A program made the position numbers and the translations under genes. Positions 4,541-61,698 of a stretch of DNA of 64,000 bases are shown in pieces. The notes beneath the pieces were generated by a model that was not told where the DNA came from, searched no databases, and worked only from the letters and a program-made list of their open reading frames with translations. Source of the DNA: an uncultured Candidatus Saccharibacteria bacterium (lineage in GTDB: Bacteria > Patescibacteriota > Minisyncoccia > Phycocordibacterales > UBA9973); NCBI GenBank assembly GCA_964404925.1, contig CAYOLW010000001.1:105408-169407 (forward strand), read 5' to 3'. Each line of letters opens with the position of its first letter. Position 1 is the first letter of the stretch.

Positions 4541-4729
4541 ATGTCTAAAATCACTGAATATTTTAAGGAAACAAAGACTGAATTAACACACGTTGTGTGG
4601 CCGACAAGGAGTTTGACCATTTTTTACACTATTGTGGTTATTATTTTGTCTGTTTTGGTGGCTTATTTCTTGGGTGCATTTGATGCATTATTCTCATTCG
4701 GACTTAAGCAAATTATTTTCTTTAGATAA
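4541..4729 (+). CDS. secE: Preprotein translocase subunit SecE
   Basis: A 62-aa protein with a single C-terminal TM helix, located directly upstream of nusG in the conserved secE-nusG-rplK order. Confidence 0.85.
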   Translation: MSKITEYFKETKTELTHVVWPTRSLTIFYTIVVIILSVLVAYFLGAFDALFSFGLKQIIFFR

Positions 4730-4742
4730 TTATTTTTTAAAT

Positions 4743-5288
4743 ATGGCAAAACAAGAAGAACAAGGTAAAAGGAATTGGTATGCAATCCACACTTATGCTG
4801 GTTATGAAAATGTGGTTTTGCGTAATCTAAAACAGCGTACTGAATCCCTGGGCATGCACGATAAGATTTTTAATGTGATTGTACCAGTTGAGAAGAAAAT
4901 CAAAATTAAAGCTGGTAAAAGAGTAGAAGTGGAAGAAAAGATATACCCTGGCTATGTGCTCGTAGACATGATTGTAACCGATGATTCTTGGTATGTAGTA
5001 CGTAATACACCTCGTGTGACAGGATTCGTTGGTGCAGGAGTTAATCCTGTTCCACTTGCTAAAGAAGAAGTTGATTATCTCTTTAAGAAAATGGAAGGCA
5101 ACCAAACTAAACACAATATTGATTTGGCTATTGATGAATCAGTGCTTATTACCGACGGACCGTTTAAAGATTTAGAAGGTAAGGTAAATACAGTTGATAA
5201 CGAACGCGGCAAGGTAAAAGTATTAGTATCAATGTTCGGTCGTGAGACACCAGTAGAACTTGATTTCTTGCAAGTTAAGAAGATATAA
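4743..5288 (+). CDS. nusG: Transcription termination/antitermination factor NusG
   Basis: It begins MAKQEEQGKRNWYAIHTYAGYENVV, has an NGN domain and a C-terminal KOW motif (GKV..V...ERGKVKVLVSMFGRETPVEL). The start is the ATG at 4743. Confidence 0.9.
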   Translation: MAKQEEQGKRNWYAIHTYAGYENVVLRNLKQRTESLGMHDKIFNVIVPVEKKIKIKAGKRVEVEEKIYPGYVLVDMIVTDDSWYVVRNTPRVTGFVGAGVNPVPLAKEEVDYLFKKMEGNQTKHNIDLAIDESVLITDGPFKDLEGKVNTVDNERGKVKVLVSMFGRETPVELDFLQVKKI

Positions 5289-6428: not shown

Positions 6429-6914
6429 TCATATTCGCTCATATTCCGCAAACTCCATATCGTATGGATTTTCTGCGTCTTTTGCACGGAAAGTGCTTTT
6501 TATTTTTTTCCATTTGGTGATATCGATAACGGGTAAGAAGACATCAGATTCTTTGAATTCTCCGTTTACGTGTGTGATATATAATTTATCTGCATTTTCT
6601 ATCGATTCTTTATAAATCTCTGCACCACCGATTATAAACACTTCTTCTTTTTCGTCTGTTAGTCTCAATGCTTCTTTAAGGGTGTGAGATACCTCGACGT
6701 TTTCAAATTTATATTCAGGGTTTCGAGTAATTATTATATTTTTCCTATTTGGTAGCGCTTTGCCAATACTTTCAAAAGTTTTGCGACCCATGATGACGGA
6801 GTGTCCACGAGTAGTGTCACGAAAATGCTGCATATCAGAAGGCAGATGCCACAGCAGGGAATTATTACCACCTAGTTCGTTATTTTTACCAATTGCTGCA
6901 ATAAGAGAAATCAT
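6429..6914 (-). CDS. folA: Dihydrofolate reductase
   Basis: MISLIAAIGKNNELG...LPW...IMGRKTF.SIG..LP.R.NII.TR is the DHFR signature. Confidence 0.9.
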   Translation of the reverse strand: MISLIAAIGKNNELGGNNSLLWHLPSDMQHFRDTTRGHSVIMGRKTFESIGKALPNRKNIIITRNPEYKFENVEVSHTLKEALRLTDEKEEVFIIGGAEIYKESIENADKLYITHVNGEFKESDVFLPVIDITKWKKIKSTFRAKDAENPYDMEFAEYERI

Positions 6915-10438: not shown

Positions 10439-10473
10439 GGCCGGTGCTCAATCGAGAGCACCGGCCTTTTTAA
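10439..10473 (+). terminator. Intrinsic terminator (ggccggtgctcaatcgagagcaccggcc+ttttt)
   Basis: A 10-bp GC-rich stem plus a T-run. Confidence 0.65.
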
Positions 10474-10490
10474 TTTAATATGAATAGATA

Positions 10491-10522
10491 AAAAAACTCC
10501 GACGTAACGTCGGAGTTTTTTT
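10491..10522 (-). terminator. Bidirectional intrinsic terminator serving rpmB on the minus strand (aaaaaactccgacgtaacgtcggagttttttt)
   Basis: A perfect hairpin flanked by an A-run on one side and a T-run on the other. Confidence 0.7.
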
Positions 10523-10536
10523 ATTGTAAGTTTTAA

Positions 10537-10779
10537 TTATTTGATCAATCCGGCTTTTTTGAGGGTAGGGTAAACTCCGTTTTTCTTGATGGTTTTGAAT
10601 CCTCGAGTAGTAGCTTCAACGATTACAGTTTTGCCTAATTCTGGCACAAACAATCGTTTCTTTTGCAGATTAATATGTTTCCTGACCTTGCCGGTAGGAT
10701 TGAATTTGGTAGCACGGGTTCTGTTTGAATATCCGCCGCCCACTACACTTGTCTTTTTGGTTATTGCACATGTTTTCAT
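10537..10779 (-). CDS. rpmB: 50S ribosomal protein L28
   Basis: MKTCAITKK...GGYSNRTRATKFNPTGKVRK resembles the L28 consensus. Confidence 0.85.
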   Translation of the reverse strand: MKTCAITKKTSVVGGGYSNRTRATKFNPTGKVRKHINLQKKRLFVPELGKTVIVEATTRGFKTIKKNGVYPTLKKAGLIK

Positions 10780-10810
10780 AACAGTGTTTGCATGCTATCA
10801 TAGAATCTAC

Positions 10811-11428
10811 ATGAACGCAATAGATACCATATTCTTCCTGGCCGTACTTATAATGTCAGTGGTTATACACGAAGTCTCTCACGGCTTTATGGCAGAATAC
10901 CTGGGGGACAAGACTGCTCGTTTGGCCGGCCGTTTGACCCTGAACCCTATTCGCCATTTAGACCTATTTGGTTCTGTTATACTACCTGCAATCTTGTATT
11001 TTAGTACTGGTTTTGCCTTTGGTTGGGCGAGGCCTGTACCATATAACCCAGCAAATCTAAGGAATGAAAGGTGGGGTACGGTGGCGGTGGCTGCAGCTGG
11101 GATACTGGCCAATATTTTTATTGCTTTATTTTTTGGATTAATGCTACGGGGTTTATACCCAGGTTACGCATCAGAGAATTTAGTTTCTTTTGTTTCGTCT
11201 ATAGTTTTCGTAAATTTAGCCCTGGCTTTCTTTAACCTGGTGCCGATTCCTCCGCTTGATGGATCTAAGATTCTTTTTGGTATACTGCCATTTCGCTTTT
11301 CTGCTGCCGTAAACGTAATTGAGCGTTACTCTTTGTTTTTGTTAATAGCGTTCATTTTCTTTTTTTCTCAATACTTATCCCCAATTATAATTCATGCTTT
11401 TCAACTAATAACAGGGATTAACCTGTAG
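10811..11428 (+). CDS. Site-2 protease family (peptidase M50) integral membrane zinc metalloprotease
   Basis: It has an HEVSHGF (HExxH) motif in the first TM region and multiple TM helices. The start is the ATG at 10811; the longer ORF-track start overlaps rpmB. Confidence 0.75.
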   Translation: MNAIDTIFFLAVLIMSVVIHEVSHGFMAEYLGDKTARLAGRLTLNPIRHLDLFGSVILPAILYFSTGFAFGWARPVPYNPANLRNERWGTVAVAAAGILANIFIALFFGLMLRGLYPGYASENLVSFVSSIVFVNLALAFFNLVPIPPLDGSKILFGILPFRFSAAVNVIERYSLFLLIAFIFFFSQYLSPIIIHAFQLITGINL

Positions 11429-45583: not shown

Positions 45584-46342
45584 CTAGCTCATTTCCTGAA
45601 TAATTTGATCCATCATGAGTGCTGCCGGGAGGCGAGCGACATCAAGCGGTACAAAGTAATCTCCTTCAACCTTGCTTGCGTCCGCTGATACGGATATACC
45701 TGCAGCATCAATCATTTCTTTATCATTTAGATTGTCTCCAATAGCCAGCACTTCACCCTCGGCCAAGCCCAGGTAGTTCCTGTATGCAGAGAGGCCCACT
45801 GCTTTGTTCTGAATTCCTTTGACCCCGATGTCATATGCTTCGCCGTTCCAGATGGCATACAGGCGGTCATTCTCGGCGACGATGTTTTCAATCTCTGGGA
45901 CTCTATCTGTACAATGGATGGTGATTATTAATTCTTTGGGTTCAAAGCCTTTCACGTTTTCGTGTCTGGACTCGATGCCGCGTAATTTCAAAAAAGTTTC
46001 TTGCAAATGGTCAAAGCTGTTCACGTGCTGGATTATTTCTCCGCGGTGCCAGGTGGCGCTGCCGTTCTCGTATGTGAGACTGGTAAAGGGAAGTATGTCT
46101 CGGAAAACTTCTTGCAGCATATACAACCCGCGTCCAGAATTGATATTGATCATGAACCCTAGTTCTTTTAATTTCTTGATCTGCTCAATCTGCTCGGGGG
46201 CGATGTGTTTCGTCTCGAGTGTTGTAATGTTATTTGATTGTTTTATATTCGTTCCACGGGGGACCAATACTCCATCTACATCGAAAACTATTAGTTTAAT
46301 ATTTTTCAAAACATCCTTCGTTAGTTCCTCAATTGGTTTCAT
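45584..46342 (-). CDS. HAD-IIB (Cof-like) hydrolase
   Basis: LIVFDVDGVL (motif I) and GDNLNDKEM (motif IV) are present. Confidence 0.7.
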   Translation of the reverse strand: MKPIEELTKDVLKNIKLIVFDVDGVLVPRGTNIKQSNNITTLETKHIAPEQIEQIKKLKELGFMININSGRGLYMLQEVFRDILPFTSLTYENGSATWHRGEIIQHVNSFDHLQETFLKLRGIESRHENVKGFEPKELIITIHCTDRVPEIENIVAENDRLYAIWNGEAYDIGVKGIQNKAVGLSAYRNYLGLAEGEVLAIGDNLNDKEMIDAAGISVSADASKVEGDYFVPLDVARLPAALMMDQIIQEMS

Positions 46343-46376
46343 GAGTTAATTCTAAGCTTTTTATTCCTAGCGTCAA

Positions 46377-47570
46377 ATGGGAAAATTATGTTATTATAAC
46401 AATATGCAAAAGGAAACTGTTCCATTTGTGAATAAAAATAATCTAGTTTGGTGTCGAGAAAAATCTGGTTTAACTATTAATCAGGTCTATGAAAAAGCTA
46501 AGTGGTCATCAAAAACTCATAAAATTGAAAAATGGGAAGCCGGTTCAGATTTTCCTACCATAGATGACTTAAAAAAGCTTGGTAAAATTTACAAAAAGGC
46601 TTGGACACTTTTTGTTTTTGAGCAAGATTTGAAAAATTTAGATTTCATGGTAATGAAAGATTTTCGTGGCTGTATCTCAGATTCTAAAGGGGAAGAAAAG
46701 AGTGAAATAATTCAGTTTCTAAATGAAATAGAACGTCGACAACTATTTGTCATTGAATTCTCTAATGCCCTTGAAATTATCGGTAATAAAAGTTTTGGTT
46801 CGTTGACTGAAGTAAAGGATGTTAATGTCGTTGCGAATAAAATAATCCAAAATCTTAATCTTAATATGGAAGAATTTCGCAGAAAGAAAACAAGATTAGA
46901 AGCCTTAAATTTCTTGCAAGAAGAATTGGGGCGAAATAATATATTTGTTTCTTTTTCTAGCACCAATCCACATAAAAAAATAAGTCTTGAACATATGCGT
47001 GGGGTTTTAATGAGGTCTTTTCTGGCACCAATTATTGGTATTAATTCTGCAGAAAAGTCGGTGGGCGCTAAGATTTTTACTATTTTTCATGAGCTTGCAC
47101 ACCTGTACACAGAAAAGGTTGATCATGATGTTTTAATTGACACTATTAATTTTCGAGATTTAGGTAAGCGTAATACAAAAGAGGGCTTGTGTGATCAGAT
47201 AGCTGCAGAAATATTAGTACCCCGTAATATTCTTGTTGAATTAAAAGGCACTTCATTCAATCCAGAGATTGTTAAGAAATATTGTATTTATTTGAAAGTT
47301 AATCGTGAGCCTTTTTTAATACGTGCAAAAGAACATGGTTTAATTAGTGAACAAGAATTTAACTCATTAAAAAATATTTCGGTTGAAGAACAAATTAAAA
47401 AAAATAAAAAAGGTAATCCGGATGGCGGTTTATTGCATATTTTGAAAAATGGCAAGTCTTTTATGCGGCTTGTTAATTCTCTTTACTCAACAGGCCTAAT
47501 ATCATATTCACAAGCACTAGGTGCTTTAAATACAAAATCCAATGCTTTTAATAAATATGTAATTAGATAG
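46377..47570 (+). CDS. XRE-family HTH domain fused to an ImmA/IrrE-family (COG2856, DUF955) zinc metallopeptidase
   Basis: The N-terminal HTH reads LVWCREKSGLTINQVYEKA. HELAHL (HExxH) lies in the C-terminal domain. Confidence 0.7.
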   Translation: MGKLCYYNNMQKETVPFVNKNNLVWCREKSGLTINQVYEKAKWSSKTHKIEKWEAGSDFPTIDDLKKLGKIYKKAWTLFVFEQDLKNLDFMVMKDFRGCISDSKGEEKSEIIQFLNEIERRQLFVIEFSNALEIIGNKSFGSLTEVKDVNVVANKIIQNLNLNMEEFRRKKTRLEALNFLQEELGRNNIFVSFSSTNPHKKISLEHMRGVLMRSFLAPIIGINSAEKSVGAKIFTIFHELAHLYTEKVDHDVLIDTINFRDLGKRNTKEGLCDQIAAEILVPRNILVELKGTSFNPEIVKKYCIYLKVNREPFLIRAKEHGLISEQEFNSLKNISVEEQIKKNKKGNPDGGLLHILKNGKSFMRLVNSLYSTGLISYSQALGALNTKSNAFNKYVIR

Positions 47571-47574
47571 ATTT

Positions 47575-48063
47575 ATGGAAGTAAACAAATCAGCACTATA
47601 TGTTTTCGATAGTAACTGTTTTATTGAGCCTTGGAATAAGTTTTATTCTTACGAATTTTTTGAGCAATACTGGGATAAGTTTTTAAAAAAAAGTTTAAGC
47701 GATTGCACAGTCTTAATTCAAGAAGAAGTTTATAATGATATTCTAAAAAAAGATGATGGTCTTAATCGTTGGTTGAAAGGTTTTAAGATAGAAATTGTTA
47801 AAACTGATATAAGTATAACTCGAGAAGTTGCGGCTATAAATAATAAATTCCCAAAGTTGACAAAAGAATATAGTGGTAGATCTTTTTCAGATCCTTTTGT
47901 AATAGCACTAGCTAGGTTTCGTAAGGCAACAGTTGTAACCATGGAAGATTTCGGTAGTGAAAATAAACCAAAAATACCATTTGTATGTGACCAAATGGGT
48001 GTTAAATGTATTGATTTATTTAAGTACTTAAAGATTGAAGGCGTATCTTTTTCAATCAAATAA
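47575..48063 (+). CDS. DUF4411-like PIN-like nuclease-fold protein, partner of the ImmA/IrrE gene
   Basis: YVFDSNCFIE, SDPFVIALA and VVTMED fit the PIN-like acidic-residue pattern. It lies 4 nt downstream of the ImmA-HTH gene. Confidence 0.6.
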   Translation: MEVNKSALYVFDSNCFIEPWNKFYSYEFFEQYWDKFLKKSLSDCTVLIQEEVYNDILKKDDGLNRWLKGFKIEIVKTDISITREVAAINNKFPKLTKEYSGRSFSDPFVIALARFRKATVVTMEDFGSENKPKIPFVCDQMGVKCIDLFKYLKIEGVSFSIK

Positions 48064-48239
48064 TTTTTTGTTGTGGACTTAGTAGCGAAAAGTGCGAACC
48101 AAATGAGAGCCTTTATAAATCAATGGTCAGAGTTCTTTAAACATAACAAACCAAACTTTCAAACAACCTAAAACCTTTATTTTAAAACATTTTATTGCTT
48201 ATTAGATATCACAATAAGAGTATTGAATACTATCTATTA

Positions 48240-49517
48240 CTACAGGTTCTTAAAATAAAAGTCTGGCAGAACAACTTTTAATTCTTCGTTAGCTGCACGA
48301 TAGCGATCTGGCGAGTGCGGAGTTGATGGATATTTATCAACGTCTTGAGGATTAGGTCTTTCTATTAGTTTTATGTCAAAAGTATTAAGTATTTCCTTGT
48401 CTTCACCGACAACTAACCTGTTTGTATATTGTAAGTAGGAATTGTTTGTTATTAATATAAGTCTAGCTATTTCATTTCCAGCACTAATAGCTTTTACCTT
48501 AACAAACTGTTTAAAGTAAGAGTAATTATCTTGGACATTAATGTATTTTGATGCTGTAACAGCAATACATATAAGTCTATTAGGTTTATATCCCAGCCTT
48601 GATAGTTCAATGTAATCAAGATTGGCTTGTCTTAATATGAGCTTTATTTTTCTCATAGTCATTTCGGGATATCTTATGTGTATGTACTCTAAAAACTCAG
48701 TAAGTTTTTTATCTTCACCTATAGTGTCAGTTGGATCAGCTTCAAATACATCAGCTACAAAATCTTGTAAATTACTCTCACTTTTTTTATTAAAAAACTC
48801 AATATAATCAAAACATTTTAAGTATGTTTCAATGTTGTCTTCATAACTTTTATTTGATACAGCAACAATAACGGTAACTTGTTTTTGTAAGGTATTTTTA
48901 GTTAAAAACTGTCTAAATGTTTCTAAAAAGAAAAGTCCATCTGGTCCTGATCTATCTATGTCTTCAATAACAAAAACTATCTTATCTTTATCCACTGCAT
49001 TAATAAGTGAGGTAAAAATATCTTGTATTTCAAACACTCGTCTTGCTGGAGACTTATCAGCAAAGTATTCAAGATTTTTTACAAGTCCAAATAGTGGTTC
49101 AAGTAACTTAGGTAACCCAAAAGCAGTAGTTGCAACATTCAAGATAGAACCAGCGGTATTTATTCCTAGTTTCTTGTCTTTACCAGATTGCCCATCAACT
49201 TCTCGTTTAACTTTTTCAAGCATACTTAGTTGTCTAGCTGTTTCAAGGATTAGCCCGTCCCATAATTCTTTGCGCTCTGGAAATTGCCAAGCATCAAAAT
49301 GGACCCACTGCTCAGTTGTTTCTTTTTGTTTTCTAATCTGTTCAATCAAGGTACTCTTTCCAACACCAAAAGGTCCGATAATTCCTATTATTTGAGAACC
49401 TTTCTTTGATTGCAACTTCTCAGTTAGCGTACTTACCGAAGAAGAGATATTAAGATAGTCTTTATCAGAAACTTTTTCTTCTAGTAAATCAACATTTTTT
49501 ATAAAACCATTTTTCAT
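48240..49517 (-). CDS. KAP-family P-loop NTPase
   Basis: IGIIGPFGVGKSTL (Walker A) and IVFVIEDIDRSGPD (the KAP-type DDLDR Walker B) are present. It lies 15 nt downstream of the Abi-alpha::Nudix gene. Confidence 0.7.
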   Translation of the reverse strand: MKNGFIKNVDLLEEKVSDKDYLNISSSVSTLTEKLQSKKGSQIIGIIGPFGVGKSTLIEQIRKQKETTEQWVHFDAWQFPERKELWDGLILETARQLSMLEKVKREVDGQSGKDKKLGINTAGSILNVATTAFGLPKLLEPLFGLVKNLEYFADKSPARRVFEIQDIFTSLINAVDKDKIVFVIEDIDRSGPDGLFFLETFRQFLTKNTLQKQVTVIVAVSNKSYEDNIETYLKCFDYIEFFNKKSESNLQDFVADVFEADPTDTIGEDKKLTEFLEYIHIRYPEMTMRKIKLILRQANLDYIELSRLGYKPNRLICIAVTASKYINVQDNYSYFKQFVKVKAISAGNEIARLILITNNSYLQYTNRLVVGEDKEILNTFDIKLIERPNPQDVDKYPSTPHSPDRYRAANEELKVVLPDFYFKNL

Positions 49518-49532
49518 AACGCCTAAATCTTA

Positions 49533-50933
49533 TTAATTAGATTTAATTATTAAAGTATTTTTTACTTCTTTAAAAATAGCCAACATATCATCACTTAAAA
49601 TTAAATTTATGAACTTCTTTTTGTCTTCTTCAGATAAGTTTGGTAAATCGTCAATTTTCCAAGCTTCAAAACCTTCTGCTTTACCTTCTTCAACTTTTAG
49701 ATCTGAGATAGGACCTTCATAAAGATAGGCATACTGGCTACGGATTGTGTTATTAGTAAGTTTAGTTACCTCATCAAAACTTTCCTTTCTCATTTTTCTT
49801 AGAAAAGTTAGCTTTGAAAGATCAATATCAATACCTGTTTCTTCTTTGCATTCTTTTACAGCGGTTTCTTCATATGACATTTTGGGTTCAACGTGTCCTC
49901 CAACAGTAGCGTCTAATTTATCAGGATAGGTATCTTTGTTTTTTGCTCTATGTTGAAAAATAATCTCTCCTTGAGGCGTAATAAACCAGATATGTATTTC
50001 CCGATGGAGAAGTCCGTCTTTGTGTATTTTTGAACGAGTTTGAAGACCCACTACTTTATCATCCTCATCAATTACCTCAAGGATTTCTTGGTATTTATAA
50101 TTTGATATTGAGTAGTGTTCTTTTAACCACTCAGTATACCCATCAACCTTTTTTGTTTTCAGATGTTGCAATATTTCTTTACCAGCAACAGAAATTGCAT
50201 AAAAAGTAGGTATTCTTAAATCTGCATTATTTTCTATGATTGGTTCAAAAACAATTTGCTCATCAAAGTAATCAATTATATACGGTAAGCCATCAGGGTT
50301 AGATATATTTCTAGTCATATCGTTTGGTAAAAATAAGCCTAAACTTTGCAGTGCTTGGAGACTACCAAAATGTAAACCTAATCCAGACATCATTTCTTTA
50401 ACATTTTCACTGCCACTGAATAAATCTTTTGGAAGTTGCTCATTATTTAACAATAGCCCAGATATTTTTTCAAAAAGCTCTAGTTCTTTTTTACCTATGG
50501 ATTTTAATGTTTGCAAAGTGCTCATTGAATAAGTTTCAGGATTGTTGTATTCTCCAGCGATTATTTTTGCAATCAAATCTTGAACCTCTTCATTTGAAAC
50601 TTCTTTTGCGTGTTCAAGAAGTCCCCAGAAGACGTCATTGTCATCTTTTATATTATTTTCAGAACTCGTAATCAAGTCTTTGGTTTTAAGTAAAGCATTA
50701 CCCAAGTTGGCATATTGGCGACCCATTTTTTGAGCTTCCGCTTGTAACCAAAAAGGTTTTTCTAAAAGTTCCCATTTTGTTTTAACCTTGTCAGCTTCAA
50801 TATCTCCCTCAGCTTCAAAAACTTTTATGGATTTACCTGTATACTTTGTAATTACAAAATCAACAAACTTATCAGCCACCTTTGTTAAGGTCGCTTTTCC
50901 TAGATCTTTTAATGGTTGAGGTAAATCGCTCAT
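49533..50933 (-). CDS. Fusion protein: an N-terminal Abi-alpha-like (DUF4393-like) domain and a C-terminal Nudix hydrolase domain
   Basis: The N-terminal region has ...DVFWGLLEHAKEVSNEEVQDLIAKIIAGEYNNPETYSMSTLQTLKSIGKKELELFEKISGL, which resembles Abi-alpha. The C-terminus has the Nudix box GGHVEPKMSYEETAVKECKEETGI. The start is the ATG at 50933, preceded by an extended -10 TGTTAGAAT. Confidence 0.6.
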   Translation of the reverse strand: MSDLPQPLKDLGKATLTKVADKFVDFVITKYTGKSIKVFEAEGDIEADKVKTKWELLEKPFWLQAEAQKMGRQYANLGNALLKTKDLITSSENNIKDDNDVFWGLLEHAKEVSNEEVQDLIAKIIAGEYNNPETYSMSTLQTLKSIGKKELELFEKISGLLLNNEQLPKDLFSGSENVKEMMSGLGLHFGSLQALQSLGLFLPNDMTRNISNPDGLPYIIDYFDEQIVFEPIIENNADLRIPTFYAISVAGKEILQHLKTKKVDGYTEWLKEHYSISNYKYQEILEVIDEDDKVVGLQTRSKIHKDGLLHREIHIWFITPQGEIIFQHRAKNKDTYPDKLDATVGGHVEPKMSYEETAVKECKEETGIDIDLSKLTFLRKMRKESFDEVTKLTNNTIRSQYAYLYEGPISDLKVEEGKAEGFEAWKIDDLPNLSEEDKKKFINLILSDDMLAIFKEVKNTLIIKSN

Positions 50934-50998
50934 AATTGCTATTCTAACATTTTTAAGATTAAAAAATAAGTCTAAAAATGGTATAATTAGGTGTATAA

Positions 50999-51370
50999 AT
51001 GGTGGAAAAAACATATAACTTTAATAATCTTAAAATCCGATCAAAAGCTATTGCAAAAGCTCGTATTTCAACTCGTCCAAAGACATATAACTCTAAGAAA
51101 AAACGCTTGGAAGACATACAAAGAGAACTGATAAAATCAGAACTTATAAAAGAAGGATTTTTAGACCAATTAAAGCCACATATGCCAAAAATAACAGAGG
51201 CTGTTATTCAGAGTGCTTGTGATCCAAGCTCTAAGGGTACAAGTGACAGGAGAATTATATTTCAAGCGGTTGGTATTTTAGGAAAAGATACTCAAGTAGA
51301 GCCAAGCCAGACAATAGCGGATGTGTTAGCTGAGATTTTTAGTGAAGAAGTAGTAAACAGTAAAAGCTAG
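50999..51370 (+). CDS. Hypothetical protein (island cargo)
   Basis: An ORF with ATG, transcribed divergently from the Nudix gene and preceded by TGGTATAAT. No family recognised. Confidence 0.4.
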   Translation: MVEKTYNFNNLKIRSKAIAKARISTRPKTYNSKKKRLEDIQRELIKSELIKEGFLDQLKPHMPKITEAVIQSACDPSSKGTSDRRIIFQAVGILGKDTQVEPSQTIADVLAEIFSEEVVNSKS

Positions 51371-51418
51371 GAAAATCTAGGGAATTATAAATATATCCCT
51401 TGATATGCTATAGGTAGT

Positions 51419-51634
51419 CTATGTTTTTTCTTTATTAGAAGTTATTTTGTAATAATTTGGAAATAGAACTTTAACTTTGTCTTTTTTAGTGGCTAATTTA
51501 GCCAAAAATGGCTTCATAACGAGCTTTGGACGCTCAGATATAGATTTGTTCCATAACCACTTTTTATAGCTATTTATGACTATTTTACTTAAGAAACTAG
51601 TCATACGACTATTTCTTAGATCTAAGCTTTTCAA
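51419..51634 (-). CDS. Hypothetical small basic protein
   Basis: The ORF overlaps the upstream membrane-protein ORF by 26 nt in another frame. It could be real or a frameshift remnant. Confidence 0.25.
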   Translation of the reverse strand: MKSLDLRNSRMTSFLSKIVINSYKKWLWNKSISERPKLVMKPFLAKLATKKDKVKVLFPNYYKITSNKEKT

Positions 51635-52007
51635 CTTTATAAGCTTTATATAAGAAAAATACGGTAAGCCCAGTAAAAAAGATTATAAAGTAAAGGATAT
51701 CTGGACTACTTGAAAAGTCACCATTTATATCTCTTCTACTTTCAACATATCTAGCTAAAATAATAAAACCTAAAATAATAGAATATATTTTTGTTGTGAT
51801 AACCAAACCAACACTAGCTTTCTTGATAAGTAGGTAAGAAAATATAAATCCTAAAATAGTAAAGACTAAAGGTGCAGCTAAGGATAAGAGTATTAAAAAA
51901 ATAGCTGCAACACCTCTGTTTGTTTTGTGCCATTTAAGACTTTTGTATTGTTCTACTTGCTTTATAAAAGAACTTTCTTTTTGCTTGATTTCTTCAGTTG
52001 TGATCAT
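51609..52007 (-). CDS. Hypothetical membrane protein
   Basis: A 132-aa protein with 3-4 predicted TM helices. Confidence 0.4.
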   Translation of the reverse strand: MITTEEIKQKESSFIKQVEQYKSLKWHKTNRGVAAIFLILLSLAAPLVFTILGFIFSYLLIKKASVGLVITTKIYSIILGFIILARYVESRRDINGDFSSSPDILYFIIFFTGLTVFFLYKAYKVEKLRSKK

Positions 52008-52671
52008 ATTTTTTGTATAAAAAATAGGCTAATAATTTAGCCTATAAACAAATATAGGCAACCCAGTGGGTGCTCACAAAACCAATAGACAAGCTACTGA
52101 TTATGCTTCCCACATAGGTCGCCTATGCTTGGCACAATCAGTAACTAACCCTTTTTAAGGGTTCGCTTGATGTCTTTTTATTGGTTTTGTGAGCAAGTTA
52201 ATGATAACATAATTTGATTTTATTTTTAAGTTATAAATGTTATAATGTACCTAACTAGAGATTTTCTAGTTAGGTCTGACACAACCTTAAGCTCAAAAAA
52301 GACACTTTTTAATTTTTACAATAGTCTTGAGAGTAATAATGTGATTAAGCTAGTTTTGAAACATAAAAATGTACCCACTAGTTAAAAGAAAGCTAGCCGA
52401 GTTGTATGCTTTATTTATGTTAGAAAATGCACAAAGTAGCTTAGTGTGAAGTTGCAACTTATCACCTCGTGATATTTCCAATCAAGTACACAGAGTAAAT
52501 AAATAAATCCTCCTGCCTCTTACAGGAAATCCTTGAAGATAGTATCTCCAAGCCGATTAAGGGTTTATTTGCCACTCTGTCTAGCTGATTAGACGTATCG
52601 CAAAGACACAGCCTTTATGGGCTGTTTTTTTGTTTTATTAGGTGTCACACAAACCCACTATGCCAAACTAA

Positions 52672-52830
52672 AATGACATTAGAGGAGTTTAAAAAACATT
52701 TTAAAAACAAAAATGTAAATGATGAGCGTATAAAAGAAATACGCGATTATTTGTATGCAATTTCAAGAGAAATTGTCTTAAACAATTTAAACGAATACGA
52801 AAAACAGATAAAAGAAAAAGGTGTAAAGTA
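52672..52830 (+). CDS. Small ORF (52 aa) immediately upstream of the recombinase. It could be a recombination directionality factor or Xis-like helper, or a spurious ORF.
   Basis: It runs from an ATG at 52672 to a TAG at 52828-52830 (MTLEEFKKHFKNKNVNDERIKEIRDYLYAISREIVLNNLNEYEKQIKEKGVK). The assignment rests on position only. Confidence 0.25.
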
Positions 52831-52843
52831 GTATAATGAATAT

Positions 52844-54490
52844 ATGAGTAAGCATAAAAAAACTATTGTTAAAAACCCAAAACAGCAATTTTCTCTTGAT
52901 GGATATGTAGGTTTGCCTTATTTACGTGTTTCAAGTAAGAGACAAGAAATTGAGGGTACTGGCTTACAAAGCCAAGAAAAAAGATGTTTAATGGAGCTTT
53001 CTAATATAGGTATTCCTCACGAGAAAAGTTTTTTTGATAGCTATACAGGGGGTGGGGATTTTATGAACCGACCAGCAATGAGATCTTTACTTGCGTATGT
53101 TGATGCGCATCCTCATAAAAAGTTTGTAGTCATTTTTGATGATTTAAAAAGATTTGCTAGAGATACCGAATTCCACTTAAAGCTTAGACTGGCTTTTAAA
53201 AATAGAGGTATAGTTCCAAAATGTTTAAACTATAATTTTGACGACAGTCCAGAAGGGATGTTTGTTGAAACTGTTTTGGCTGCATCAAATGAATTAGAAA
53301 GAAAACAAAACGCTAGACAGGTAGTGCAGAAACAAAAAGCACGACTTGAGGCTGGGTATCGCGCGTTTCCGTCTGTTAAAGGGTACACAAGAGTAAAAGA
53401 TCCTATTCACGGAAAGATTGATATTCAGAACGAACTTGCTATATATGTAAAAGAAGCTTTAGAAGGATTTGCAAGTATGCGTTTTGTTCACAAAATTGAT
53501 GGGGCTAAGTTCTTACAAGAAAAAGGAGTAATAAGTAAAAAACAAAATGCTGATAAAGCAATTTCTACTTTTGATAAGATGCTAAGAGAAGTCTTCTATG
53601 CTGGATACATAGAATACGAGCCTTGGGAGGTAAATAGAAGGGTTGGACACCATAAGAGCTTGATTGGTCTTGATACTTTTAATAAAAACCAAAATAGGCT
53701 GATTAAAAACGCAGTTTCTTTTACTAGGCAAGATATACGAGAAGGGTTTGAGTTAAGGGGATTAATAAACTGTGCATACTGTAATAAAAAGTATACTGGT
53801 GGACCTTCAACTGGTAGGAGTGGTAAAAAATATAATCTATATAAATGCCCAACAGTAGGCTGTGAAAGATATGGTAAAAGTATAAGTACAAAAATTGTTC
53901 ACACGCATTTTGAAGACTTATTAAAAAATATAAAACCGTGCGAAGAAATAATTGATCTAGCTAAGAGTGTTTTTGAAGAAGTGTGGAACGAGGAAATTAA
54001 AAACAGATCAAGCCTGCATAGTTCAATCATTAAGCATAAAAATGATTTAGAAAATGATATCTCAACTTTTACTGACAGAATATCAAAAGCAGTAGAAACA
54101 GGGGCAAGTGAACTTGTAATAAAACAATATGAAAAGCAAATACATAAAATTGCCACTGAATTAGAAGATCTTGAAGAAAACATAAGCTTAGCGTATGACT
54201 ACAGTATTCCTTATAGAACCGCTAGTGAAGAAGTGTTAGGTGTGTTAAAAAGCCCTTATGCTGTATGGAAAAATTACAATCCAGCACAAAAACAAAGGTT
54301 CTTCTCTTTTATATTTGAGACTAATTTAATTTATAGTAAAGAAGAGGGTTATAGAACACCAAGTTATTCTTTACCTATAAGGATATTTGAGGAAATAAGT
54401 ACCTCAAAACCCCTTGATGTGGAACTGGGGGGAATTGAACCCCCGTGCAGAAAGTGTGTGCCAAGAAATCTACATGTGTATTTTGTTTAA
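52844..54490 (+). CDS. Large serine recombinase (resolvase/integrase family). The last ~23 codons are read across the antisense of the tmRNA 3' end.
   Basis: It has an N-terminal resolvase catalytic domain (YLRVSSKRQE with the catalytic Ser; FDDLKRFARD), then a recombinase domain, a zinc-ribbon-like CxxC...CxxC region (CAYCNK...CPTVGC) and a coiled-coil. Confidence 0.8.
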   Translation: MSKHKKTIVKNPKQQFSLDGYVGLPYLRVSSKRQEIEGTGLQSQEKRCLMELSNIGIPHEKSFFDSYTGGGDFMNRPAMRSLLAYVDAHPHKKFVVIFDDLKRFARDTEFHLKLRLAFKNRGIVPKCLNYNFDDSPEGMFVETVLAASNELERKQNARQVVQKQKARLEAGYRAFPSVKGYTRVKDPIHGKIDIQNELAIYVKEALEGFASMRFVHKIDGAKFLQEKGVISKKQNADKAISTFDKMLREVFYAGYIEYEPWEVNRRVGHHKSLIGLDTFNKNQNRLIKNAVSFTRQDIREGFELRGLINCAYCNKKYTGGPSTGRSGKKYNLYKCPTVGCERYGKSISTKIVHTHFEDLLKNIKPCEEIIDLAKSVFEEVWNEEIKNRSSLHSSIIKHKNDLENDISTFTDRISKAVETGASELVIKQYEKQIHKIATELEDLEENISLAYDYSIPYRTASEEVLGVLKSPYAVWKNYNPAQKQRFFSFIFETNLIYSKEEGYRTPSYSLPIRIFEEISTSKPLDVELGGIEPPCRKCVPRNLHVYFV

Positions 54491-54812
54491 AGTTTTAAAC
54501 TCATAGATTATTAAACGAACAAAATATCTTTGAGTCGATTCCTAAGTTTTCGTGAGTTGTGCGGACGGGCAACTCCTTATTCCGATAATATTACACCTTA
54601 ACCCATGCATCGGAAGTCGATGGGCAAGACGCCAGATTCGACTAAGCGAAAGCTGGAGCAAAAGCGAAATCCTTCATACCGAAGTATGGAGATTTCATTC
54701 CTGCCTTAGATGCTAATTTTGCAATTAGACTTTGAACGCTTATTAACGAGCATGCGTTCATCCTCGACATGCATCAAGACACGACGGCTTACTGTCTATG
54801 CCTGGCAGTCCC
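54419..54812 (-). ncRNA. ssrA: tmRNA (ssrA)
   Basis: On the minus strand the 5' end is GGGACUGCCAGG and the 3' end is GGGGGUUCAAUUCCCCCCAGUUCCAC (tRNA-like T-arm). The acceptor stem has the G3:U70 wobble typical of Ala charging. The conserved UGCAUGUCGAGG box and PK1 are present, followed by an internal ORF ending GCU UUC GCU UAG. It is adjacent to smpB. Confidence 0.85.
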
Positions 54813-61579: not shown

Positions 61580-61611
61580 AGACTATATTATAGCATTAGT
61601 TTTGTTTGGTG

Positions 61612-61698
61612 CGGATAGGGTGGGATTCGAACCCACGGTTCTTTTTACAGAACGGCGGTTTAGTAAACCGCTGCCTTAAGCCTCTCGGCCACCTATCC
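61612..61698 (-). tRNA. Class-II tRNA-Ser (G73 discriminator, long variable arm) with an apparent anticodon ACU
   Basis: The acceptor is GGAUAGG/CCUAUCC. The D-arm GCC-GAGAGGCUUAA-GGC is nearly identical to E. coli tRNA-Ser. The anticodon stem is GCGGU/ACCGC with loop UUACUAA. The variable arm is GUUCU-GUAAAA-AGAAC, and the T-arm is GUGGG-UUCGAAU-CCCAC. Confidence 0.7.

Follow-up and report, generated by a model that had tools for sequence, protein, structure and literature searches.

A probable VapBC52-type toxin-antitoxin module carried on an ssrA-associated island of a Paceibacteria genome

Two adjacent genes in a 64,000-nucleotide (nt) stretch of contig CAYOLW010000001.1 (the window, i.e., the whole stretch of DNA that was analyzed, to which all unprefixed positions refer) probably constitute a VapBC52-type, Rosmer-like, type II toxin-antitoxin (TA) module, in which a large antitoxin with a helix-turn-helix (HTH) domain and an M78 zinc peptidase is encoded directly before a DUF4411 PIN-like nuclease toxin. 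The VapB52/RmrA-like antitoxin gene (46377-47570, plus strand) encodes 397 amino acids (aa) as its longest open reading frame (ORF), and ends in the stop codon TAG at 47568-47570; a spacer of 4 nt (ATTT) follows, and the toxin gene (47575-48063, plus strand; 162 aa) begins with the ATG at 47575. An earlier note, made from the sequence alone, had described ORFs of these two sizes 4 nt apart and read them as a TA or defense-like module. Both ORFs are present where it placed them, and its interpretation is supported, since none of the testable observations that it had named as contrary to that interpretation was made. Because both proteins have full-length homologues, with E-values as low as 1e-60 and 1e-141, the two-gene observation lies far beyond chance. 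The N-termini of the homologues align to M10 of the antitoxin (ATG at 46404) and deposited gene calls (388 aa) use the same codon, so that M10 is probably the true start, giving a protein of 388 aa, and the longest ORF is probably nine codons too long. Residue numbers below are those of the 397-aa ORF.

Both proteins match a single solved complex. A sequence search of the PDB retrieved chains of one entry, 9VZY, which is the VapB52-VapC52 (Rv2515c-Rv2514c) complex of Mycobacterium tuberculosis (PMC13273310, 2026). The toxin matched chain 9vzy_D (VapC52, deposited as 'DUF4411 family protein') with an E-value of 9.5e-19, residues 5-159 against 8-162 of the chain, and the antitoxin matched chain 9vzy_A (VapB52, deposited as 'HTH cro/C1-type domain-containing protein') with an E-value of 2.5e-12, collinear over residues 20-380 against 4-369. 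In these alignments, D12 of the toxin falls on the catalytic D6 of VapC52 (Ala in 9VZZ), the HELAH of the antitoxin (residues 238-242) and E269 fall on H216, H220, and E245 of VapB52, and KDFR falls on RDFR. In the M. tuberculosis system, VapC52 is a PIN-fold tRNase, and VapB52 is a three-domain protein of ~46 kDa that binds a toxin dimer with a stoichiometry of 1:2: its five-helix N-terminal domain (NTD) is needed for toxin binding, a zinc peptidase of the IrrE/CapP type makes up its middle domain, and its four-helix C-terminal domain (CTD) covers the VapC52 active site (PMC13273310). In response to single-stranded DNA (ssDNA), VapB52 removes its own NTD at a conserved 'FR' motif in a HEXXH-dependent manner, and Cys229, within a GLCD motif, is proposed to act as a 'cysteine switch', i.e., a fourth zinc ligand that keeps the zinc site closed as long as ssDNA is not bound (PMC13273310).

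The assignment of each protein was examined separately. The toxin matched the whole DUF4411 profile of Pfam (PF14367, profile positions 1-159 of 159) with an E-value of 5.3e-31 and 108 bits against a cutoff of 23.5, strongly bearing out the family that had been proposed from the residue pattern. The Pfam PIN profile matched marginally (E 0.05), and the search of NCBIfam gave no family match for the toxin. The PIN-like fold, also part of the initial proposal, was recovered by structure prediction: the AlphaFold2 (AF2) model of the toxin has a predicted local distance difference test score (pLDDT) of 90.2 and a predicted template-modeling (TM) score of 0.86, and all 12 of its Foldseek matches in the PDB at E≤1e-3 are VapC-type PIN proteins (TM 0.54-0.70), led by a Pyrococcus VapC and by VapC2 and VapC11 of M. 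tuberculosis. The acidic residues D12, E51, D106, and E124 are all present; in alignments of toxin homologues, D106 and E124 never vary, and the conservation of D12 and E51 is at least 90 %. Profile, fold, acidic residues, and the presence of an HTH-DUF955/COG2856 neighbor all agree with membership of the PIN-like superfamily as subfamily DUF4411.1. Sequence and predicted structure together make the toxin a PIN-fold nuclease of the DUF4411 family whose acidic active site is intact.

In its sequence and predicted model, the antitoxin has the domain organization of VapB52. Pfam placed a Peptidase_M78 (ImmA/IrrE; PF06114) match at residues 205-287 (46989-47237, plus strand), with 27.6 bits against a cutoff of 22; it contains the HEXXH zinc site HELAH (nt 47088-47102) and the third zinc ligand E269 (nt 47181-47183), which is aligned with VapB52 E245. 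The nearest solved folds of this middle domain in Foldseek are CapP (7t5t) and PprI/IrrE, and the ImmA/IrrE assignment of the earlier note therefore holds. That note had placed an HTH at the N-terminus and the peptidase at the C-terminus of the protein: the HTH and the HELAH peptidase are present, but the peptidase is central, because a helical subdomain and a four-helix CTD (residues 350-396) come after it. The N-terminal XRE-type five-helix HTH domain (residues ~20-80; 46434-46616, plus strand) was recognized from matches at residues 26-73 to HTH_19/31/3 that are below the Pfam cutoff (HTH_19, E 0.002), from the AF2 helices, and from its Foldseek neighbors BswR (4o8b), C.Csp231I (4jcy), ImmR, and SinR; a search of the NTD against NCBIfam gave an RstR match only, below threshold. 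This domain is predicted to bind both the toxin and DNA. In the linker between the NTD and the peptidase, F96-R97 (within KDFR; 46662-46667, plus strand) aligns with F75-R76 in the RDFR of VapB52 and is the predicted site of autocleavage. The C-terminal four-helix domain (residues ~350-397; 47424-47567, plus strand) comprises helices at 350-358, 360-371, 377-384, and 388-396, is preceded by a disordered linker (residues 339-348, pLDDT<50), and, by analogy with VapB52, is predicted to cover the active site of the toxin. The AF2 model as a whole (pLDDT 82.5) thus shows five helices at 20-80, a low-confidence FR linker (pLDDT 56-69), the peptidase core, and the four C-terminal helices. The structural neighbors reported for VapB52, i.e., CapP, IrrE, BswR, and C.Csp231I (PMC13273310), are those found for the window antitoxin. 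PADLOC models of RmrA (E 1e-8) and capP (E 3e-8) also matched the protein.

To compare the antitoxin across its family, the window protein was aligned with 72 homologues from 71 genomes. W25, R27, W53, E54, R97, P218, F234, H238, E239, H242, E269, and L384 are invariant in the 72 homologues, and F96 is kept in 64 of them; at the level of sequence, the comparison shows the FR motif and the zinc site to be universal in the family. By analogy with VapBC52, one antitoxin molecule would clamp a toxin dimer, with the NTD on its outer face and the CTD plugging the active site. A stress signal (ssDNA in the case of VapB52, with DNA damage or phage replication as a possible source) would switch the peptidase on, and the peptidase would then cut its own chain at or near F96-R97, so that the NTD is lost. 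The released PIN toxin would be expected to cleave RNA, most likely in tRNA loops, and the ensuing halt of translation and growth could serve as abortive infection, as addiction, or as both.

The earlier note had further supposed that the two genes occur together in other genomes. We scanned one genome per species with DUF4411 motifs, starting from a narrower alignment since one of 25 toxin sequences proved too diverse for this purpose, and obtained 80 loci (80 species). An antitoxin homologue with HEXXH lies directly upstream of the DUF4411 gene on the same strand at every locus with enough upstream DNA (77/77), the other 3 being truncated contigs; the pair is conserved as was supposed. The gap between the two genes is -4 at 37 loci and -1 at 10, which suggests that they are translationally coupled. 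The loci come from Verrucomicrobiota, Acidobacteriota, Chloroflexota, Actinomycetota, Gemmatimonadota, Planctomycetota, Bacteroidota, Pseudomonadota, and Bdellovibrionota, from a Kaiserbacteria genome of the candidate phyla radiation (CPR), from one contig labeled archaeal, and from others, and an exhaustive HMMER search found 2,213 cluster representatives (50 % identity) at E≤1e-3. The surroundings of the pair vary even among close relatives: in one (L082), another large serine recombinase is found 2 kb away from it, in a second (L085) it sits inside a type I restriction-modification (R-M) operon between HsdS and HsdR and near Mrr, and in a third (L086) it stands among unrelated genes. The family was also found on 2 phage contigs and 20 PLSDB plasmids (9 conjugative), where RefSeq names the pair 'XRE family transcriptional regulator' and 'DUF4411 family protein', and both window proteins match PHROG families. 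Since the pairing is constant while the neighbors vary, and given these plasmid, phage, and PHROG occurrences, the pair behaves as a mobile two-gene module. The R-M locus is itself a compact defense island (L085, 1534-15295), with the order HsdM, two unknown ORFs, HsdS, the pair, AAA_14/DUF4143, HsdR, an unknown ORF, and an Mrr-like gene.

In the window, the pair lies in an ssrA-associated island, as the earlier note had stated, and the island could be delimited at about 46366-54416. This low-GC genomic island of ~8.05 kb was recognized from a fall in GC (0.29-0.35 between 46 and 54 kb vs 0.38-0.45 in the flanks) and from an empty site in a relative (L094); its boundaries are approximate to a few nt. 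A gene for a large serine recombinase of 548 aa (52844-54490, plus strand; Pfam Resolvase and Zn_ribbon_recom; PHROG 95 integrase, E 4.5e-48) converges on the gene for transfer-messenger RNA (tmRNA), ssrA (54417-54812, minus strand), the two sharing 74 nt at the ssrA 3' end. This ssrA, the integration target, is intact (ARAGORN; Rfam RF00023, 120 bits, model positions 1-374 of 374). In relatives that were located by way of SmpB, the genes stand in the ancestral order FtsH-SmpB-tmRNA-(HAD-APH-HAD)-IF3-L20, and at the empty site of L094 the tmRNA (10453-10851) is followed by 22 nt and then by the homologue of a window HAD gene (45584-46342). No att direct repeat or second copy of the ssrA 3' end was found within the window, as expected for a serine recombinase; the insertion ends, ~46366 and 54416, were therefore set by junction alignment with the relatives. 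In a further relative (L139, 804-2809), a recombinase of 42 % identity likewise overlaps the tmRNA 3' end and is accompanied by other cargo, and this relative shares the island-end sequence TTTGAGGTA-N7-CCTCAAATA with the window island. Comparison of the window with L139, and with the empty site of L094 (10453-11610), suggests a family of ssrA-targeting serine-recombinase islands in Paceibacteria. The tmRNAs of L094, L139, and L092 were overlooked by ARAGORN and recovered by Rfam. SecY encoded in the window shares 78-92 % identity with proteins that carry the names Paceibacteria, Nomurabacteria, or Patescibacteria, which makes the host a CPR bacterium. These comparisons indicate that a large serine recombinase brought the island into a Paceibacteria genome at the 3' end of ssrA.

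The TA pair is the island cargo furthest from the recombinase, ~5 kb away from it, and the antitoxin start codon lies within the island, ~10-40 nt from its boundary. Facing the toxin gene in convergent orientation is a minus-strand pair of genes (48240-51014) for a DUF2806-NUDIX fusion (493 aa) and, across a 15-nt gap, a KAP-family P-loop NTPase (425 aa), the latter with PADLOC matches to PifA (1.4e-10) and QatA (3.5e-9); these genes are possibly a second defense operon on the same island. At the other end, the last ~24 codons of the recombinase (54417-54490) are the complement of the tmRNA 3' end, so that the C-terminus of the recombinase would change on excision; when its frame was modeled over a hypothetical circular junction, the resulting tails varied with the exact cut point. 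The tmRNA (54419-54812, minus strand) encodes a long tag of 26 residues, AKLASKAGMKSPYFGMKDFAFAPAFA, and the tag of a relative (L089) is AKLTSAQESPYFGMISFALAFA. The ssrA-adjacent island of the related Paceibacteria contig L139 contains a LOOT RNA (RF03000, 62 bits; 4631-4746, minus strand).

Several observations weigh against the assignment to a VapBC52-type module, or against a defensive role for such a module. The toxicity, its neutralization, the RNA substrate, and the trigger would all be carried over from a distant homologue. In that homologue, protection against phage was observed in the M. tuberculosis study when the toxin was over-expressed alone and not when the pair was co-expressed, the intact pair giving no protection against phage D29 (PMC13273310), and a defense role of the intact module is not established even in this reference system. 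PADLOC, its RmrT models included, returned no match to the 162-aa toxin at E≤0.1. A promoter and terminator scan of 45900-48400 gave fewer promoter-like sites than shuffled sequences and no terminator after the toxin gene. No convincing promoter, operator, or terminator was found at the pair, and no clear Shine-Dalgarno sequence was found for it. Furthermore, the GG[LI]CD cysteine-switch motif is absent from loop 244-266 of the window antitoxin, and Cys and His are both missing from this loop in its 12 closest relatives. Because the switch residue is absent, activation in the clade of the window may differ from that of VapB52.

The switch loop was compared across the 72 homologues. The loop that replaces GLCD in the window antitoxin is longer and acidic, EKVDHDVLIDTINFRD, and has His250 at the position aligned with VapB52 C229. 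His250 was considered as a stand-in for the switch Cys and was downgraded, since the closest relatives do not conserve the His. In the wider family, Cys occurs in the loop of only 36/72 homologues, and GGH, with His at the aligned position, in 23/72. The cysteine switch, absent altogether from the window clade, therefore looks like a subfamily trait rather than a family-defining one. Loss of the switch, together with the lack of a clear promoter or Shine-Dalgarno sequence, could be taken to mean that the pair is a decayed or non-functional remnant. This we consider extremely unlikely: both ORFs are full-length relative to their homologues, all invariant catalytic and structural residues are kept, and the switch-less loop is common to a whole clade of relatives of 50-63 % identity, which argues for a maintained variant and not for decay. 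A bolder reading is that the Patescibacteria clade represents a distinct switch-less VapBC52/Rosmer-like variant, in which the peptidase is gated otherwise (by the acidic loop, a His ligand, or a trigger other than ssDNA) and TA expression is coupled to the integrated or excised state of the island. With the operon beginning ~10-40 nt from the island end, its upstream control region would change on excision and circularization; even so, this combined proposal is unlikely.

At the island edge, a promoter-like TTGACG-16 nt-TAGAAT (46349-46376, minus strand; 10/12 matches) spans the junction of island and chromosome and faces the HAD gene; its -35 would be island-derived and its -10 native. Just upstream of the antitoxin start there is a TGnTAAAAT-like (extended -10-like) element, at 46378-46386 in the window and at ~6790-6810 in both L082 and L086. 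In the window it falls within the nine extra codons of the longest ORF; in the two relatives no more than 6 nt separate it from the ATG, a spacing that hints at transcripts with no leader or almost none.

What a VapBC52-type module would do on this island was then weighed. The pair probably stabilizes the island, defends the host, or both; a defense role is plausible and island addiction equally reasonable, and the two are not mutually exclusive. A stricter alternative is that the pair is mainly an addiction module, which penalizes loss of the 8-kb element by post-segregational killing and has no dedicated phage sensing. Its place at the far end of the cargo of a mobile element that encodes a serine recombinase, the homologues on 20 plasmids, 9 of them conjugative, and the failure of the intact VapBC52 pair to protect against D29 would all agree with this, but addiction would not require anything as elaborate as a sensor protease activated by ssDNA, one close relative is embedded in the type I R-M and Mrr defense operon, and the window island also holds the KAP-NTPase and NUDIX operon with its PifA/QatA-like matches. 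We regard addiction as the main function as a real possibility, though on balance an unlikely one. The same island context raises the question of whether the 397-aa protein is chiefly an immunity regulator of the element, i.e., a fused ImmR repressor and ImmA anti-repressor that controls excision or transfer genes, as in ICEBs1 and prophages, with DUF4411 as an accessory nuclease. The protein does combine an XRE HTH with an M78 peptidase as in ImmR/ImmA (PMC10440598, PMC2701414), it is located on a recombinase-bearing island, it matches PHROG 2439 (E 1.5e-25) and its best PHROG match is annotated 'transcriptional regulator', and a palindrome, TGTTATTATAACA, stands just upstream of the likely start (ATG 46404). 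The palindrome is not conserved in relatives, however, and was dropped as a candidate operator. The gene lies ~5 kb from the recombinase gene, at the opposite end of the island and not divergent from it; HTH and protease are fused in one chain rather than encoded as separate genes by an integrase; the DUF4411 pairing holds at 77/77 loci whatever the context, including loci with no recombinase nearby; and the homologue VapB52 directly binds and neutralizes its PIN partner. A regulator of this kind is very unlikely. The VapBC52-type TA module remains our preferred reading of the two genes.

Elsewhere in the window, ARAGORN predicted a tRNA-Ser with the anticodon ACT (A34), which is unusual in bacteria (61611-61698, minus strand; Rfam tRNA, 55.7 bits), adjoining a divergent tRNA-Ser(GCT).

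With regard to significance, the locus is a clean and intact example of a protease-gated PIN TA pair in CPR/Patescibacteria, whose tiny genomes are usually seen as defense-poor, and the pair travels on a small ssrA-targeting island alongside a second candidate defense operon. That only some half of the family has the cysteine switch proposed for VapB52 and CapP, and that this clade lacks it, is a concrete, testable qualification of the activation model in the literature. Apart from this point, the locus is ordinary.

Among known systems, VapBC52 is the closest in kind. Both window proteins are full-length homologues of its components, with the same antitoxin-then-toxin order and tight spacing; the five-helix XRE NTD, the M78 and helical middle domain, and the four-helix CTD (in the window antitoxin, from a predicted model) are shared, as are the FR motif, the HEXXH plus Glu, and the DUF4411 PIN fold with its catalytic Asp. 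The differences are that the window proteins are distant in sequence (the HMMER E-values given above), that the window antitoxin, if it starts at M10, does not have the disordered N-terminal extension of ~23 residues, and that the window pair resides on a mobile island of a CPR bacterium, whereas VapBC52 occupies a core chromosomal position. RosmerTA (RmrT/RmrA; Millman et al., 2022; Ernits et al., 2023, PMC10440598) likewise has an antitoxin composed of an N-terminal HTH and an ImmA-type Zn-peptidase. Eight PADLOC RmrA models matched the window antitoxin at E 1e-8 to 5e-5 (best 1.1e-8, residues 18-332), which are weak matches of ~20-32 bits in a collection that has no curated cutoff, and NetFlax associates the ImmA/Rosmer antitoxin hub, with which the architecture of the window pair overlaps, with PIN-like toxins (PMC10440598). 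By contrast, no RmrT model matches the window DUF4411 toxin, the characterized RmrT toxins are unlike it (e.g., the membrane-depolarizing RmrT of phage Kita; PMC10440598), and Rosmer gene order is variable, with the toxin first in 58 %, whereas the antitoxin always comes first in the window family.

CapH/CapP of the cyclic oligonucleotide-based anti-phage signaling system (CBASS), IrrE(PprI)/DdrO of Deinococcus, and ImmR/ImmA of ICEBs1 share with the window antitoxin the M78 peptidase with its HEXXH plus Glu zinc site and, by prediction, an XRE-type HTH as substrate and a DNA-damage or ssDNA signal. In those systems, however, the protease and its HTH substrate are separate and the output is transcriptional derepression, whereas the window antitoxin is one chain that is predicted to be cleaved in cis and so to set a nuclease toxin free; neither CBASS genes nor genes of an SOS-like regulon adjoin the window pair. 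Canonical VapBC modules have the same PIN-fold toxin with four acidic residues, but their antitoxins are DNA-binding proteins of 8-13 kDa with an unstructured tail (of the ribbon-helix-helix, AbrB, or PHD type), in contrast to the ~45-kDa, multi-domain, enzymatic antitoxin of the window, and their stoichiometry is 2:2 or 4:4, compared with 1:2 in the VapBC52 reference structure. The architecture itself is known: in 2009, a TA-like prediction named Rv2515c as an example of an Xre-COG2856 fusion linked with PIN toxins (PMC2701414), in 2017 Matelska placed DUF4411 directly downstream of a fused HTH-DUF955/COG2856 gene (PMC5499597), in 2019 VapBC52 was reported as a functional TA pair (Tandon et al., as cited in PMC13273310), and structural and biochemical characterization followed in 2026. 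The window locus is a sequence-divergent addition to this record, and it goes slightly beyond the literature in its CPR host, in an ssrA island whose limits could be set and whose empty site is seen in a relative, and in its membership of a clade without the cysteine switch.

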